Shown: one piece after another, positions 3,001 to 26,142 of the stretch | Layout of the letters: every line of letters begins with the position of its first letter | Numbering within the stretch: the stretch's first letter is position 1 | IMG/VR virus record: IMGVR_UViG_3300032285_001029 | Location: 64,001-128,000 of that record | Origin: a virus | Direction: 5' to 3' (one strand) | Length of the DNA: 64,000 bases | The notes under the pieces: model-generated | The model's database searches: none | Seen by the model: only the letters and a program-made list of their open reading frames with translations | What the model was told of the DNA's origin: nothing | Position numbers and translations under genes: made by a program

Positions 3001-6000
3001 ATATTAGTACCAGAAGTTGTACCAGTCATTTGTGTTGATAAAATACTTGTACTAACTGTAAATGTTGATCCTGAAGGAATCTTACTTATGTAATACTGTG
3101 TAGTTGTTGACAATCCACTACCTACTAATCCTGTACCACTAAATGTGATAGGATACAAAGGAACTAAACTAGTAGTTGTACTAGTAATATAGTTTGTTGT
3201 ACTAGCGGTTGCAGTACAAGTAATATTTAATATGGCGCTACTTGTTGCAACTTGGAATTGGGTAGAGTTAGGAATGTTAGACACATAATAAATTGTATCT
3301 ACAGATAGACCTCCCATTGTAATTCCTACAAACTTCACAGGATTACCTATAACAAATCCGCTAGTTGATGTACATGTAATTAAGTTTGCACCTACTAGTG
3401 TTGCTGAGGCTATTGTCTGATTTAATGTATTACTAATTGTAATATGTGAACTGTCAGGAATCAAACTAATATAATATTTTGTGTTTAATTGTAAGCCGCC
3501 TATCGCAGTACCTGTAAAAATAATCGGAAATAACGAAACTATGCCAGCTGTCGTTGTTACCGTTAACTGATTACTTACGGCAGTTGTTGCCGAAGCTGTA
3601 GTAGTTGTTGTACCTGACGATATTGTAAAATAATGACTATCCTTTATGTCATTAACATAATAAATTGTTCCTGCGCTAGTTCCGCCTAACGCTGCACCTG
3701 TAAACTGAATTTGCATGTTAGGTTTCATGTATGTCGTAGAATCTGCATACATGTAGCTAGTCCCGGAAACTACATTCATTATCATACTGCCAGTGCCTGT
3801 GACTAAAAATACAGGAGTTCCGTATATCGATGTCGAAACTTGGAAAGTATTTCCTGATATGTTTGTAATATAATAGGTAAAATTGTTAATAACACCGCCA
3901 TACAGTCCGCTATATTCGAACGTGACTGGCATGTTTTGATACAACTGAGTGATATTAGTAGTTGTCATTGTGTTAGTCTGACCACCCGTAACCGAAGTAA
4001 TTACAACGGTTGCTTTGGAAGTAGACGTAACTGTTGCTGAATATACTGTTGGATAGAATGATACCGGCATGTCTGTATACAACAGATTAGTATCAGCCGA
4101 ACTATCTAAATATAATTCATTTGTTGACGATGTGCTACCAGTAATTTTTACTGGATCATATGATTCTTTAGCGACGTAAGCATATCCATTCACATCATCG
4201 TAATAGGAAATTAGTCCGTATTGACCTACTCCTGTACCACTAGTTAAAAATACTCGCAAACCTAAATATGTGCTACTTGCAGCCGTTTCCGATCCGGCCA
4301 ACGTGACATACGATGTGTTTCCGCCTTGTGCATTGTTGCTGCTAGTTTTGTAACCGGCACCACCAACTTGATCTCCTGTACCTGGATCAATAATTCTACT
4401 TTGATAAACTGCACCTGATCTAATTTCATTAGCAACACTTGATACACCGCTACCTGATCCTGTTACTAGAAAGTCTGCGTATGCGCTGTATTTTTGAGTA
4501 TCAGTGCGTAGATAAAACTTAGGTGTTGTTTGATACGGATTATGTTCAATTTGTGGACCATACACATAGTTATATGCAGATACTGCAGTTGCATATCCTG
4601 CAACATAGACGTAGAAGGTACATAAATTATTAAGACCTGATACATCGTAAGTGGTGAAGTAAAGTCTATTCCAACTGTTATTACCTTTAATAATCCCAAC
4701 ATTTAACGGAGTTATTGCACCGGTTAAGGTAGTTGTATAAGTTAAAGCACTTAGATTGTAATCAATTCTTGTTGTGTTAGAACTTACTCCGCTGAATACA
4801 GTTGACAAAGAAACTGTTGATGCTGTACCGGCTTTAACATAAACACTAAATGTGTATTTTTGTTTAACTGTGTTTGGAACTGTCCCTGTTGCACTAGCAA
4901 CTGTAATTGCTCCTGAAACTGCAGTATCTACGTTAATTGTAATATCATGCAGACCTAATAATCCGCCAACTGTATTACCACTAATTAATATCTTATCGCC
5001 AGTATTGTAACCTGAGCCGCCAACTGGACTTCCTGTAATTGCACTAACTACATACCCTGCTGCTGTTACAGAGATAGTAAACGTAGCACCATTGCCTGTA
5101 CCAATAATATTAGAACCACTACGCCCTGTATAAACGTTACCTGAAGGAGTAATGTTGATTGCTTGGTAAATTGATCCAGAGTTGGCTGCTACATTAGTTT
5201 TGGTCAATTGCCATGCATATAGTCCACCAAATGGATCTGTACTATTTTGTAAGTATGTTACATATGAATCGTCGGCCCAACCAGTTGATGTTAAATTGTT
5301 ACTGTTCTTTAATAGATTAAGTACTTGCTGATTGTAAAACTTACCGTTGTTAGAAAACTGATATTTTAAAACTTGAGCACTTAGCCCTTGTACTGTTTGT
5401 AAAGTTGGAGTAACACCGTAGTATCTATTATACGTCACAGCAGTAATTGGTGTTTCGTTAACGTCAAATCCTTCGGCGATAACACCATATGTACCATATG
5501 AGCTGTTACCATTAGTAGCACGAATACGTCCACCATTTTCTGCAAAATAACCAGCATAACCAAAGTAACTGAAAATACTAACAAGTTCAGTTAATGCACC
5601 GGTATTAGTACACCATGCACCGATACCATCATTTATAATATGAGTATAGTCGTTAGCAACAATAGATTTATTACCGCCGTTATGTAAACTACCATCAATT
5701 TTTAATCCTGTGCATCCTTGACCAAATGAACTTACATTTTGAATGTAAGGAGATTTATAAGAGATCCATACAGTAGTATCAGCTGGTCCTGTTCCTGGAT
5801 CTAAACTTACAAATGCACCGCCAGTTGGACGTTGTGTGCCTAACGAGTTAGTAGTTCCTAACGTGCCTAGTAATCCAGACATTGTCATGTTGCGAATGCC
5901 GCTGCCATTTCTCACATAAAACATATTTGAAATAGCATCGCCGCCTATGACTTGAATAAGTCCACTGCCGCCGAGTAATGTCGATGCTGAACCATTTGGG

Positions 6001-21904: not shown

Positions 21905-23872
21905 TTACATGCCAGTACGACTATTTGAAACTCCAGATGCAACATGTTTTAATTGAGTAACTTGTTTATCTGCAATATTTACTAACTGGCCCATGTATGT
22001 ACTTATCTGCATCATGTGTTGTTTCAAGTCATTAAGGCCGCTATTATTGTCAACTGCGGGCATTTGAATAGTTGGCGCAGGTAACGTAGGCATCGCTGTT
22101 TGAGCTGACGATATTTTGGTAGCAAACGTTTCCATCATAGGCATAAACTGACTCATTGCCGAATTCATTTGTCCTTTAATTTGATTAATATTGATATTCT
22201 TACTTGAATCAAATATTTGAGAAAATTGATCCTTAGTTAGTACAGTTTCGCCTTTATGAACTTTGCCAAAAAAATCATCGGGTTCAAACAGTTGCCCTGT
22301 CATACCTAATGTACCAAGTGCTCTTTCTTGTTTTCCAACATTCCGTGTAACAACTCCTGATCTCTCCTTGGGCGGCACTGCAGCTTTAGGAGCGCCAGGT
22401 GTCTCTCCACTAAGTCCTTTATAAATTTCAGACCAGATGCTTCCTTGCTCTGACATTATGCTCTTGTTAGTATCTAATATTTTTTTCAAATCTGCTTGAT
22501 GATCTCCGGCAAATTTATTAAACTGTTTAAACATAGTGTTAAATTCTACACCTGTATCATAAATTATGTTTTTAGATGCATTAAGTGTACGTTGTAAAGC
22601 AGCATTAGGATCTTCTAATGCTGCTTTTTTCTGCTCAGCAGTTGCTTTTTCTCTCGCTATTCGAGCTTCTTCAGTTGTTTTTATTTCGCCTTGTCTAGCT
22701 GCAGTTATTTGATCATTTAATGCTAAGTTCTTAGTCATACTTTCATTGTACATTTTAAGAATAGCATTACGTTGCTCCTGAGGCATACCTGCATCACCTC
22801 TTGATGCTTGCTGAACTAGTCTTAAAAATTCAGGATTAGTTATTTGTTTATTGTATTCTTCGGTAAACTTAGCTTTGGCTTCTTCGACCCCTACTCCTGA
22901 TTTAACTGCGGCACTGTATTCTTGCAATGCAATCCCAGCAGGACCTAACGCTGTAACTAACTGTGCATCCATTTGATTTGTAATAGCACCGCCAGTTTCT
23001 TGTAAATGCAAACCAAGATCTGTTATAGATTCTCCAAACTGACTCATGTTTGCCATGCTTTGTATTGCTCGCTGTTGTTGATCTTTATCTAATCCTGCTA
23101 AGTAGGCACTTACGTCGGCTTTTGCCAGCTCCTTCTTCAATCCTTCTTCAACTTGTTTCCTACTCATACCTGTTGCTCGGGACAGGTCGTCGATTTGTGT
23201 AGTAAGCATACCAGCCGATTCTATAAGAGCATTTTGTCCTACTGTTGTTCTAGCATCGGCTGCTCGCATACCCATTGTTGAAATTAACAGTGCGCTGTTT
23301 AAATCTTCTGCTGATCCGCCAGCAAGTAAAAATTGATTTCCTAAATCTGATGTTTGAACATTACGAGATAATTCTAAAAATCGTTTTGAACTATCGGATG
23401 CAGTTAGTCCTAGCCCTTGAAGTTGTATAGAATTTTCTTTATTAAATCTAACATAATCGTCCATGGTCATACGAGCACCACTGACAGAAGTTGCAAAGTC
23501 TCCTAAATTGCCACCAAAGTATGCTCCTTGATCTGCAGCTTTACTCAACGAATCATTATAGAGATTAATTACTCCGCCACCTTTTTCCAACGCATTGGCA
23601 AAAACTCCGCCTACTACTGGGATTGCACGTAACGGTTCTGCGACTAGAGAAACAGCATCATTCAGATTGAACGTGCCAATTGTTAATTTTTGAAAAGCAC
23701 CTGTTAAAGCATTAGCTGTACTTGTTACGGGTTTAAATAAATCGTCAATAAATCCAGTAACGCCACCGCCGGAACTTCTACCGCCGCCGGAGCTGCTGCC
23801 ACCGGACGAACCGGATCGCGATTGATCTCTCAAAACTTGTGTTAGTTCTCGTACTTCATCTTCAAGTGCCAT
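21905..23872 (-). CDS. Tape-measure-like protein (655 aa, gp29-like)
   Basis: Long Ala/Gln/Leu helical protein; C-terminal GT.G.TG..VHKGETVLT motif seen in tape measures; divergent from the gp26-like gene. Confidence 0.6.
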   Translation of the reverse strand: MALEDEVRELTQVLRDQSRSGSSGGSSSGGGRSSGGGVTGFIDDLFKPVTSTANALTGAFQKLTIGTFNLNDAVSLVAEPLRAIPVVGGVFANALEKGGGVINLYNDSLSKAADQGAYFGGNLGDFATSVSGARMTMDDYVRFNKENSIQLQGLGLTASDSSKRFLELSRNVQTSDLGNQFLLAGGSAEDLNSALLISTMGMRAADARTTVGQNALIESAGMLTTQIDDLSRATGMSRKQVEEGLKKELAKADVSAYLAGLDKDQQQRAIQSMANMSQFGESITDLGLHLQETGGAITNQMDAQLVTALGPAGIALQEYSAAVKSGVGVEEAKAKFTEEYNKQITNPEFLRLVQQASRGDAGMPQEQRNAILKMYNESMTKNLALNDQITAARQGEIKTTEEARIAREKATAEQKKAALEDPNAALQRTLNASKNIIYDTGVEFNTMFKQFNKFAGDHQADLKKILDTNKSIMSEQGSIWSEIYKGLSGETPGAPKAAVPPKERSGVVTRNVGKQERALGTLGMTGQLFEPDDFFGKVHKGETVLTKDQFSQIFDSSKNININQIKGQMNSAMSQFMPMMETFATKISSAQTAMPTLPAPTIQMPAVDNNSGLNDLKQHMMQISTYMGQLVNIADKQVTQLKHVASGVSNSRTGM

Positions 23873-23896
23873 ATTTTTTAACCTGTAAAAGTAGCA

Positions 23897-23922: not shown

Positions 23923-23932
23923 CGGAGATAAA

Positions 23933-24754
23933 ATGGCTATAAATCCCTTACAAAAGTACTTTCGTCAACCAAAAGTCTATATCAGTTTACCTAGTAAAGG
24001 TGTGTATTACTCTGCAGGAAATTTACAAGGTAACATTGAACAGATACCAGTATACGGTATGACAGGCATGGACGAAATTATGGCTAGAACTCCGGATGCA
24101 TTATTATCAGGAGAAAGTACAATTAAGATTGTAGAGAGCTGTTGCCCTACTATTAAAAATGCTTGGGAAATTGTAACTATTGACTTAGAAACTATACTAA
24201 CTGCTATTAGAATTGCAACGTATGGTAACTTGTATGGAGTAGAAACAAAATGTCTACAGTGCGGTGAAGAACACGCTTACGACATCGACTTAAATCAATT
24301 TATAGATCATTATAAGAATTGTACTTACGAAAATAAAGTAGTGCTAAAAGACTACACTATCAACTTACGCCCTATTACGTATAAAGAAACGTCGGAGTTT
24401 TCAATAAAAAACTTTGAGATACAACAAAAGTTTAAGCAAGTTAATCAGATGCCCGAAGGCGATGAGAAAAAACTTATAAGTGATCAGCTGTTTAAAGATA
24501 TTGTACAACTACAAAAAGAAATCTTCAGCGCAGGAATTGAATCAGTTGAAGCAGGTTCCCAGACAGTTAATGAACGTTCTTATATTAACGAATGGTTAGA
24601 CAACTGTGAAAAATCTGTATTCGATCATATCAAACGGCAATTGAATACAATTAATAAAGAATGGACACCGCCTGCTACAAAAGTAAAATGCACAGCATGT
24701 GGGCATGAACAAGAAGTGTCTGTTACATTGGATCAGTCTGATTTTTTCGTCTAA
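23933..24754 (+). CDS. gp26: Baseplate hub assembly protein (T4 gp26-like)
   Basis: NPL..YFRQP..Y..LPS.G, MT..DE, D...IL.AIRIATYG, two CxxC pairs, C-terminal DFF; GGAG SD. Confidence 0.8.
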   Translation: MAINPLQKYFRQPKVYISLPSKGVYYSAGNLQGNIEQIPVYGMTGMDEIMARTPDALLSGESTIKIVESCCPTIKNAWEIVTIDLETILTAIRIATYGNLYGVETKCLQCGEEHAYDIDLNQFIDHYKNCTYENKVVLKDYTINLRPITYKETSEFSIKNFEIQQKFKQVNQMPEGDEKKLISDQLFKDIVQLQKEIFSAGIESVEAGSQTVNERSYINEWLDNCEKSVFDHIKRQLNTINKEWTPPATKVKCTACGHEQEVSVTLDQSDFFV

Positions 24755-24804
24755 GCCTAATTAAATTAAACAACGAAGAAATTAGCGAGTATTTAATTAG
24801 GCTT
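24742..24804 (+). promoter_or_regulatory. Programmed -1 ribosomal frameshift signal (slippery T TTT TTC plus 14-bp stem-loop)
   Basis: X XXY YYZ heptamer at 24742-24748; AAGCCTAATTAAAT (24753-24766) pairs perfectly with ATTTAATTAGGCTT (24791-24804). Confidence 0.75.
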
Positions 24805-24981
24805 GAACAGTTTATATCTAGATTCAAAGAAGAACTACTTAGAGTAAGCTGGTATATGAGGGGTTCAGTTACTTACGATCAAATGCTATATCAGTACAGT
24901 TATGATGATCGTGCAGCAATGTATGAAGTAATCAAAGAAAATATTGAAGCTACTAAAAACTCTGGAATGCCGTTAATTTAA
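24742..24981 (+). CDS. Start-less gp51-like frame, probably expressed as a -1 frameshift fusion to the gp26-like protein (349 aa total)
   Basis: Open -1 frame of 79 codons FFRLSLIKL...ELLRVSWYMRGSVTYDQM..YSYDDR..IKENIE...MPLI*, bounded 5' by TGA at 24739; first ATG only at 24856. Confidence 0.7.
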   Translation, partial: FFRLSLIKLNNEEISEYLIRLEQFISRFKEELLRVSWYMRGSVTYDQMLYQYSYDDRAAMYEVIKENIEATKNSGMPLI

Positions 24982-26142
24982 TTATTTCTGAACTAGTTGT
25001 CCAGTTTGCGGATCACGAGTATAGCCTGCAGGAGCTGGTTGTGATTTTCTATAAGCAGTCAATGCATTTTGATCAATTGGCTCATACCACTTTGTCGGCG
25101 TTGGAGCAGCTTTATCATATTGTTTCATAGCAGCAGGTGTACCACCATCAGGTCCTGTAGTACTAGTTGCTGCAATATCCTGTTGTGCTGTTGGGCTAGG
25201 TTTTGCAGATTGTTGTGTACCATTAGCTGTGCCAGTAGTTGCTGCAGTTGTACTAGTTGTATCAGGAGTTTGATTTGATTGTCCAATTATTGAATCAATT
25301 ATTCCGCCAGCAGCACGGATTGCTGCTGCTTCGATAGTCTGTACATAATCTGTTACATTAGGAAAATACTGTTGTAGCCAAGTAAACAGCATAAATCTTG
25401 CGATTGTTTCAGATCCCTTGTCAGTTGCTGCCCATGCCATAAATGTAGCTTGTCCTACAGTAGCAACTTTTTGTAGAAATGCATCTAACCCAGGAAAATT
25501 TTTAGATATAATTTTCCAGCTGGCAAATGATCTTATTAGTTTATTACCTATTAACACACCTGCTATTCTGCTTACGCACCAAGAAGTTTCTTGTTTATAC
25601 AGTGCATTATATTCATCTTGTGTGATTGTTCCGCTTTTTAGTGCTGCTTCGCCTTTGCGCAAATTAACCACACACTCGTATACCGGTTGTCCAACATCCC
25701 ATAGACCCAATGCACCCCACACAACTGATCCTGCTTTGTTCATGACGTTCCATGCTGTTCCAACTGGAGCAACAATACGAGCAATCTTATCTTTAATTGC
25801 TTGTACGCCACCTTTAATTGCAGATATTTGATCCTGTCGTATTAATTTTTCTGCTTCTTTTCTAGCACTTTTAATAATATCTTTCCATTCGGGATTATTA
25901 ACAGTGAAATGTCTACGAGCTTCGACTTTACCAACGGCAGCTTCTAGTTGTGCTAGTACTGCTTTACGATTTATCGAAGTACCTGCCTTACTTGCACGAA
26001 CCATTTCTTGTGCAAAAAGATCTATAAGTTTTTGCTTAGTCGCAATTCCTCCTATAGATTTAGCACCATATGCTAAAGCTTTACCAATTAGTCCTTCTTC
26101 ATGAAGATGTTGGTTAGGTGTAATTATGTCAAGTATTCGCAT
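24982..26142 (-). CDS. Hypothetical late protein (386 aa), possibly internal/ejected virion protein
   Basis: AATAAATA at 26172-26165 upstream; helical body with hydrophobic segments and a Thr/Pro/Gln-rich tail. Confidence 0.7.
   Translation of the reverse strand: MRILDIITPNQHLHEEGLIGKALAYGAKSIGGIATKQKLIDLFAQEMVRASKAGTSINRKAVLAQLEAAVGKVEARRHFTVNNPEWKDIIKSARKEAEKLIRQDQISAIKGGVQAIKDKIARIVAPVGTAWNVMNKAGSVVWGALGLWDVGQPVYECVVNLRKGEAALKSGTITQDEYNALYKQETSWCVSRIAGVLIGNKLIRSFASWKIISKNFPGLDAFLQKVATVGQATFMAWAATDKGSETIARFMLFTWLQQYFPNVTDYVQTIEAAAIRAAGGIIDSIIGQSNQTPDTTSTTAATTGTANGTQQSAKPSPTAQQDIAATSTTGPDGGTPAAMKQYDKAAPTPTKWYEPIDQNALTAYRKSQPAPAGYTRDPQTGQLVQK

Follow-up and report, generated by a model that had tools for sequence, protein, structure and literature searches.

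Tail chaperones made by frameshifting are characteristic of phage tails of the lambda and P2 types, and we know of none described in the T4 lineage. In lambda, a small morphogenesis gene has a heptamer of the form X XXY YYZ close to its 3' end, and a -1 shift there yields two N-coterminal proteins, the short G and the C-terminally extended GT. The logic of this pair is summarised in PMC5009743, which refers for the conserved -1 frameshift of tail assembly genes to Levin 1993 and to Xu, Hendrix and Duda 2004. For T4, PMC3004832 lists gp26 and gp51 among the hub assembly chaperones and gives gp51 as missing from the particle. Here we describe a gene of the gp26/gp51 family that, as with lambda G and GT, very probably gives rise to two N-coterminal proteins by a -1 shift near its 3' end. 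The gene lies at 23933-24754 on the + strand of a 64,000-nucleotide stretch of viral DNA (positions 64,001 to 128,000 of IMG/VR virus record IMGVR_UViG_3300032285_001029), referred to below as the window.

The 0-frame open reading frame (ORF) of this gene encodes 273 amino acids, carries two CxxC knuckles, and belongs to the gp26/gp51 family of baseplate-hub assembly proteins. It matches PF12322 ("T4_baseplate") with E=1.5e-18 and 67.7 bits (the Pfam gathering cut-off is 24.5), and it falls in phrog_150 of PHROGs ("baseplate hub", E=8e-19). Residues 55-272 of the ORF cover positions 39-218 of the 219-position PF12322 profile, and the domain ends exactly at a Phe-Phe dipeptide. An AlphaFold2 (AF2) model of the ORF has a predicted local distance difference test score (pLDDT) of 87.

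This Phe-Phe is encoded by the proposed shift site. The ORF ends gaT TTT TTC gtc taa, placing the slippery heptamer T TTT TTC (24742-24748, + strand) in the X XXY YYZ phase of the 0 frame. The -1 frame is shut by a TGA at 24739-24741, directly before the heptamer, and then remains open to the TAA at 24979-24981; its extension (FFR...MPLI, 24742-24981, + strand) has 79 codons counted from the heptamer, and its earliest ATG, GTG, or TTG is the ATG at 24856. With the G that follows the heptamer, the shifted frame reads a conserved Arg codon, CGN. A shift would join 0-frame residues 1-271 to the extension in a product of 349 amino acids. Four nucleotides after the heptamer, a stem-loop (24753-24804, + strand) with a perfect 14-bp stem (24753-24766 with 24791-24804) and a 24-nucleotide loop is a candidate frameshift stimulator. 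A sequence-only reading of this DNA had already claimed the slip site, the closed and then open -1 frame, products of 273 and 349 amino acids, and the inverted repeat, and each of these was reproduced here. Upstream of the heptamer, we found no Shine-Dalgarno-like stimulator beyond the GGA of the Leu-Asp codons. The best explanation of these and the comparative data below, and one that we hold with good confidence on sequence grounds, is that the PF12322 gene is decoded in two ways by -1 ribosomal frameshifting, giving a domain-alone and an extended protein. The claim of a programmed -1 frameshift in the sequence-only reading is strongly supported by the comparative data, namely the heptamer, the coding character of the -1 frame, the covariation of the stem, and the existence of single-ORF homologs.

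Conservation of the heptamer was analyzed in a first comparison set of 80 IMG/VR loci (43-54% protein identity) and eight cultured phages, which gave 75 non-redundant ORFs. All 75 have xxT TTT TTC, in one and the same phase, among the final codons of the gene. Elsewhere in these ORFs, Phe is encoded by TTT in 79% and by TTC in 21% of cases, and roughly 60% of the relevant preceding codons have T as their third base. At the heptamer, by comparison with the 21% background, the Phe was spelled TTC in 73 of 73 cases; the codon before it specifies any of six amino acids (N, S, D, H, R, or G) and always ends in T. The heptamer is set in 27 distinct flanking-codon contexts, the spelling NNV TTT TTT was never seen at this site among the 75 unique ORFs, and TTTTTTCG is invariant in an ungapped alignment of 48 sequences (alignment A2).

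The same heptamer is present in nine cultured jumbo phages at ∼30% identity (RaK2, CBB, A4, fHe-Yen9-04, Kaldavass, XbC2, Atu_ph07, Phosso, and PA5oct); in Pseudomonas phage PA5oct, it reads agT TTT TTC and is followed by an unannotated -1 frame. In a distant clade of 22 loci (L090-L111, 23-27% identity to protein P0022), the site reads aaT TTT TTC G, and the -1-frame TGA lies three codons upstream. Conservation of the heptamer in gp26 homologs, which had been proposed as a check of the frameshift, is thus found across the first set, this distant clade, and the cultured phages. A metagenome scan with P0019 gave no match.

In T4 gp26, the Phe-Phe is kept (…KEFFELL), but it is spelled G TTC TTT, which is not slippery; there is no downstream frame, and gene 25 follows directly. 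We conclude that the dipeptide is ancient and that its slippery spelling is specific to the lineages that have a downstream frame. At two loci, L066 and L070, a second slippery run, ggA AAA AAA taa (∼2328-2334), lies between T TTT TTC and the 0-frame stop, three codons downstream of the T TTT TTC, and a slip at either run leads into the same -1 frame.

A further line of evidence comes from homologs in which the two parts are encoded in one frame. Among the top 150 matches to a profile of the extension, ∼25 are proteins of 319-351 amino acids with the extension at the C terminus, and such single-frame proteins of domain plus extension fall into at least 19 clusters at <50% mutual identity. All of the eight that were tested score above the PF12322 gathering threshold. 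Their junctions (LDFSEMF-RAKLIRL and LDFSNQF-RNKLIRM, for example) are colinear and gap-free with the predicted trans-frame peptide of the window, LDQSDFF-RLSLIKL, and all follow the pattern LDxSxxF-RxxL. The existence of these natural homologs argues that the two parts do occur covalently joined in a real protein under selection, and that the junction is precisely the one predicted for a -1 slip. At one such locus, L113, the junction DNA, aca cgT TTT CGT, is two T short of the frameshift spelling and has no heptamer, and the single-ORF forms are therefore not homopolymer errors. That the heptamer itself arose by chance, or that an assembly or sequencing error in its T-run split one gene, has a negligible probability, prone as homopolymers are to indel errors, because the same configuration occurs in >100 independently assembled contigs and nine finished cultured genomes and because two bases and one amino acid, not a one-base indel, separate the true single-ORF forms from the frameshift type.

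The -1 frame also behaves as coding sequence among the homologs: a stop closes it 0-16 codons before the heptamer, and an open stretch of 72-79 codons follows. Conservation of the extension peptide sets in with its first residues (FFRxxLIxL…SWYMRGG…DR…N…PL), and the mean column identity is 66% (alignment A1). Its AF2 model is helical (pLDDT 88.9), with helices at residues 11-38 and 54-74. A profile search with the extension found 322 homologous proteins among 1.84 billion cluster representatives. Many 41-amino-acid database entries begin at position 39 of this profile because the Met of the WYMRGG motif corresponds to the ATG of the -1 frame in the window; the 41-amino-acid ORF that a gene caller would report here (24856-24981, + strand) is an artefact of this kind. 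The extension gave no informative match to Pfam, PHROGs, or PDB sequences, and the extension of RaK2 is phrog_18291, of "unknown function". One match, a protein of 1435 amino acids with five extension-like stretches (P0106), was rejected as spurious because it is a Listeria-Bacteroides repeat protein.

The stem-loop of the window has a predicted stability of -16.7 kcal/mol (z = -2.97 against dinucleotide shuffles), and one of 200 shuffles folds as well. When the stem was projected onto 48 aligned sequences, 73% of the cells were paired, compared with 20-45% when the partner was slid by 1-3 columns, and double-sided changes occurred at 10 of the 14 stem pairs. The covariation score of 0.314 exceeds those of the slid partners (≤0.168) and was reached by none of 500 shuffles. 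Compared with synonymous recodings that preserve the -1 peptide, the real sequences are more stable, with a mean z of -2.25 (96% below 0 and 63% below -2). RNAalifold returned no consensus structure for all 48 sequences; in some subclades the same 5' arm position is paired with a different 3' partner, which accounts for the lack of a single consensus.

Several observations weigh against a ribosomal shift at these loci. The loci compared are phylogenetically related, and the counts given above do not add up independent cases. Phages of the RaK2/CBB type, some members of the L090 clade, and L066, L070, L071, and L074 have a weak 3' structure or none. Atu_ph07 and Phosso have an ATGA stop-start overlap that would permit coupled re-initiation there, and several lineages have an ATG near the junction. 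Thus, of the stem conservation that the sequence-only reading had proposed to check, covariation and excess stability were found in the window and most of its clade, with the exceptions listed above for the 3' structure; the 3' stem is a frequent feature and not a universal requirement.

The start codons near the junction raise the question of whether the extension is a separate small protein, made by coupled re-initiation or from a non-canonical start, with no fusion product. The extension is indeed called as a gene of its own in the annotations of Phosso, Kaldavass, XbC2, CBB, A4, and fHe-Yen9-04. Among 89 unique junctions (tallies accurate to about ±2), 28 have some ATG, GTG, or TTG within +48 nucleotides, and 61, the window among them, have none from the upstream stop to +48. 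A conserved independent start for the second frame, which the sequence-only reading had named as evidence against a frameshift, was not seen; where start codons occur, their positions are scattered from -45 to +42. In addition, conservation of the peptide begins at the heptamer itself (FFR), the heptamer is invariant even where an ATG is present, and the natural single-ORF fusions show that the joined form is functional. On this evidence, production of the extension solely as a separate protein is very improbable, and independent initiation may occur as an addition to frameshifting in the lineages with the ATGA overlap.

A slightly stronger contender, though still an improbable one, is transcriptional slippage, in which RNA polymerase would add one U on the T6 run and a subset of the mRNAs would encode the long protein in one frame. 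Its product (...FF-R...) would be identical to that of a -1 shift, and homopolymer runs are known slippage sites (PMC5009743). The 3' stem, moreover, is dispensable in some clades. Polymerase slippage in bacteria typically occurs at runs of 8-9 or more, however, and a T6 run is short for it to be efficient. The run also never departs from the X XXY YYZ phase and is always preceded by a T; an NNV TTT TTT spelling, which would suit the polymerase equally well, is never seen, and a covarying structure at a spacing of 4-6 nucleotides downstream fits a ribosomal rather than a polymerase mechanism.

Returning to ribosomal frameshifting, we propose that most ribosomes would stop at the TAA at 24752-24754 and release the 273-amino-acid domain-alone protein, which would resemble T4 gp26. 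A fraction of the ribosomes, their P and A sites occupied by tRNA-Phe on UUU UUC, would pause at the stem-loop that begins 4 nucleotides further on, slip back by one base to UUU UUU, and read on in the -1 frame from CGU. This slip would yield the 349-amino-acid protein, whose 77-residue helical C-terminal extension would give it the architecture of T4 gp51, and the 3' stem would act as a stimulator in most lineages. We infer in this way slippage on the ribosome, a ratio of two products, and their joint action as baseplate-hub or tape-measure assembly chaperones like those of lambda G/GT. Escherichia coli dnaX, the gene for tau and gamma, is alike in having a bacterial -1 frameshift at a heptamer, a 3' stem-loop stimulator, and two products per gene; it differs in having a Shine-Dalgarno stimulator upstream, of which there is no evident counterpart here, and in that its shifted product is the shorter one.

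The two predicted products can be compared with the two T4 proteins of the same family. T4 gp26 (208 amino acids; E 8.8e-64, 215.6 bits) and T4 gp51 (249 amino acids; E 3.9e-52, 177.5 bits) are both full-length matches to PF12322 and members of phrog_150, and gp51 has ∼48 additional C-terminal residues beyond the domain. Like the 0-frame product described here, T4 gp26 ends 3 residues after the conserved Phe-Phe. In gp51, as in the predicted long form, the chain goes on beyond the equivalent F-K, and its tail can be aligned with the junction and the C-terminal half of the extension. When the extension profile was compared with the tail of a gp51 family profile built from ten divergent T4-likes, hhalign gave 76.6% with E 2e-5 and a score of 28.4, which is ∼9 standard deviations above controls (200 column shuffles, 10.0 ± 2.0, maximum 17.1; reversed tail, 9.0). 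A near-global alignment of the long form with gp51 is colinear through both Cys motifs, the junction (dFF-R-xxLIxLxxEEI and vF-K-LLvNPDEI, respectively), and the C-terminal segment.

Some of these comparisons tell against an equivalence of the long form with gp51: the similarity to the tail profile is moderate, and global alignments of the two reach a probability of only 7-25%. When compared with the single sequence of T4 gp51, the extension gave 1.9% with hhalign, and the single sequences of gp26 and gp28 were also negative; the tail similarity appears only with the gp51 family profile. The gp51 tail is also ∼25 residues shorter than the extension and does not contain the long helix at residues 11-38, and the T4 proteins differ further from the products described here in very low sequence identity and in being encoded by two separate, divergently transcribed genes with no recoding. 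Thus, the proposal in the sequence-only reading that the second frame is gp51-like does not hold for the downstream frame by itself; it does apply to the fusion product, gp51 being a PF12322 domain with a tail that resembles the extension.

Copy number follows the mode of expression. A single PF12322 gene was found in six complete frameshift-type genomes (RaK2, PA5oct, Atu_ph07, CBB, A4, and fHe-Yen9-04), as in the window, whose gene is the only one detected in this phage, where one copy means no second at E ≤ 0.01, a criterion that a very diverged paralog could escape (the short paralog of L113 scores only 26.4 bits) and that to this extent tempers the comparison. By the same measure, T4, RB16, L113, and L117 have two copies. 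A protein search for a T4 gp51 homolog in the window's own 142-kb viral record, which is an estimated 38% complete, gave no match, a result that is uninformative. In phage RB16 (L125, HM134276.1), genes 54, 51, and 26 lie in this order on one strand, with 51 and 26 overlapping, whereas T4 genes 26 and 51 are divergent; the paralog pair has therefore been rearranged among T4-likes.

The uncultured L113 and L117 show a third arrangement, with two PF12322 genes in tandem, first a short paralog without the extension and then the long form. The short paralogs (L113 3018-3998 and L117 2935-3930; 327-331 amino acids) have lost both CxxC zinc-knuckle motifs and keep the N-terminal NPLxxFFRK motif that is typical of the frameshift clade. 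The long forms have the same domain and extension as the window, an identical F-R junction geometry, and a homologous, divergent large gene next to them. They differ in that the junction (cgT TTT CGT) has no heptamer and in that the short form is a second paralog without the CxxC knuckles. With one PF12322 gene in the frameshift-type genomes and two elsewhere, these sequence comparisons argue that one recoded gene stands in for the short/long gp26/gp51 gene pair. They also support a view of T4 gp26 and gp51 as short and long paralogs that correspond to the two products of a single recoded gene. Frameshifting, tandem paralogs, and divergent paralogs would constitute a natural experiment with three solutions to one requirement, in which chaperone stoichiometry and role are testable in culturable phages.

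A function like that of lambda G/GT is plausible for the short and long forms by analogy, because their architecture and neighborhood are similar: a short and a C-terminally extended protein are made in lambda and predicted here, the gene adjoins a tape-measure-like gene, and its T4 relatives are assembly chaperones. The contrast between one-gene and two-gene genomes makes this equivalence more plausible. The system differs from lambda G/GT in its unrelated protein family (PF12322), in its heptamer (T TTT TTC instead of G GGA AAG), in the replacement of the frameshift by two paralogous genes in some lineages, and in its orientation. G/GT lies directly upstream of the tape measure gene on the same strand, and the gene described here is adjacent to the tape-measure-like gene but divergent from it. 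The sequence-only reading had inferred that this gp26/gp51 pair, divergent from the tape-measure-like gene, is the functional equivalent of G/GT.

A frameshift could also be real without its products being chaperones of the G/GT kind; they could serve as structural subunits of the hub, or only the long form could be of importance, the short one being an inert by-product. Earlier genetic work put gp26 in the T4 hub (PMC3004832), the CBB homolog is annotated as a "structural protein", and the gene is not co-oriented with its neighbor as G/GT is. The similarity searches are in keeping with such a role as well: neither the gene nor the extension matched a tail-assembly-chaperone family in Pfam or PHROGs, and Foldseek against the PDB (both models) and VIA-align wide (the gp26 model) recovered only generic helical hairpins (Z ≤ 8.4), a lack of matches that is still compatible with a relationship. 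Against a non-chaperone role stand the listing of gp26 and gp51 as chaperones and the absence of gp51 from the particle (PMC3004832), and one annotator (H114) labels gp51 a tape-measure assembly chaperone. Further, every lineage examined has retained a short and a long form, whether through frameshifting or as two genes, and this speaks for a need for both. We consider a non-chaperone role possible and on balance unlikely.

More broadly, we propose, tentatively, that T4 gp26/gp51 could derive from a single recoded gene by duplication and subfunctionalisation (or be ancestral to it) and that the short/long PF12322 pair could be the G/GT counterpart of the T4 superfamily, in which both forms would load onto the protein of the tape measure or hub and the next component would be recruited by the extension. 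The finding would link the T4 hub "catalysts" to the tail-chaperone logic of lambda G/GT. If the proposal is correct, it would offer a concrete mechanism for the long-unexplained "catalytic" role of gp51, the two-product logic of G/GT would have arisen independently in an unrelated family, and frameshifting and gene duplication would be interchangeable.

The slippage join is annotated in none of the records examined, in which the extension either has a "hypothetical protein" entry of its own or falls in an unannotated gap, and we found no description in the literature of recoding in gp26/gp51 genes or in Rak2-like/PA5oct jumbo phages. In RaK2 (L003) and PA5oct (L112), the unannotated gaps after the baseplate hub gene, at 3353-3716 and 3254-3476, hold -1 extensions of 73 and 75 codons, respectively, followed by a terminator-like hairpin. 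The data point to widespread, unannotated recoding across a jumbo-phage supergroup that includes RaK2, 121Q/A4, CBB, Atu_ph07, and PA5oct types and hundreds of metagenomic contigs. Missing it has led to mis-called "hypothetical" genes of 41-75 amino acids or to empty gaps, an annotation that is directly correctable. In fHe-Yen9-04 (L085, NC_042116.1 175948-176823), the PF12322 gene is annotated as "Lead, cadmium, zinc and mercury transporting ATPase", a clear misannotation that was probably triggered by the CxxC motifs.

The phage itself had been called T4-like in the sequence-only reading; its nearest cultured relatives are instead the Rak2-like and allied jumbo phages. The closest cultured relatives of the gene, at ∼30% identity, are RaK2, K64-1, GAP32, CBB, 121Q/A4 types, fHe-Yen9-04, Atu_ph07, XbC2, and others, and a blastn search of the region against phage records gave no match. 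In these relatives, the portal gene is followed on one strand by a gene for a large tape-measure-like virion protein, and the gp26-like gene is divergent from the latter. In the window, the corresponding position is occupied by a divergently transcribed gene for a 655-amino-acid protein (21905-23872, - strand), syntenic with RaK2 ORF088, with the "structural protein" genes of CBB and PA5oct, and with the large gene of L113/L117. This protein resembles its equivalent in L113 (BLASTP E=6e-6) and has no Pfam match and no BLASTP similarity to the RaK2 protein. This neighbor, described earlier as tape-measure-like, is identified as such by position only.

In the 60-nucleotide intergenic region between the divergent genes, TATAAATA (23887-23894, + strand), 39 nucleotides upstream of the ATG, matches the T4-type late-promoter consensus and is a candidate on the basis of that match; GGAG at 23924-23927 (+ strand) is a candidate ribosome-binding site read directly from the sequence. 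On the other side of the gene, a 386-amino-acid ORF (24982-26142, - strand) has no Pfam or PHROG match and a Thr/Ala/Gln-rich, low-complexity C-terminal third. This ORF converges on the extension, and its stop codon abuts the TAA of the extension (24981/24982) without an intergenic terminator.

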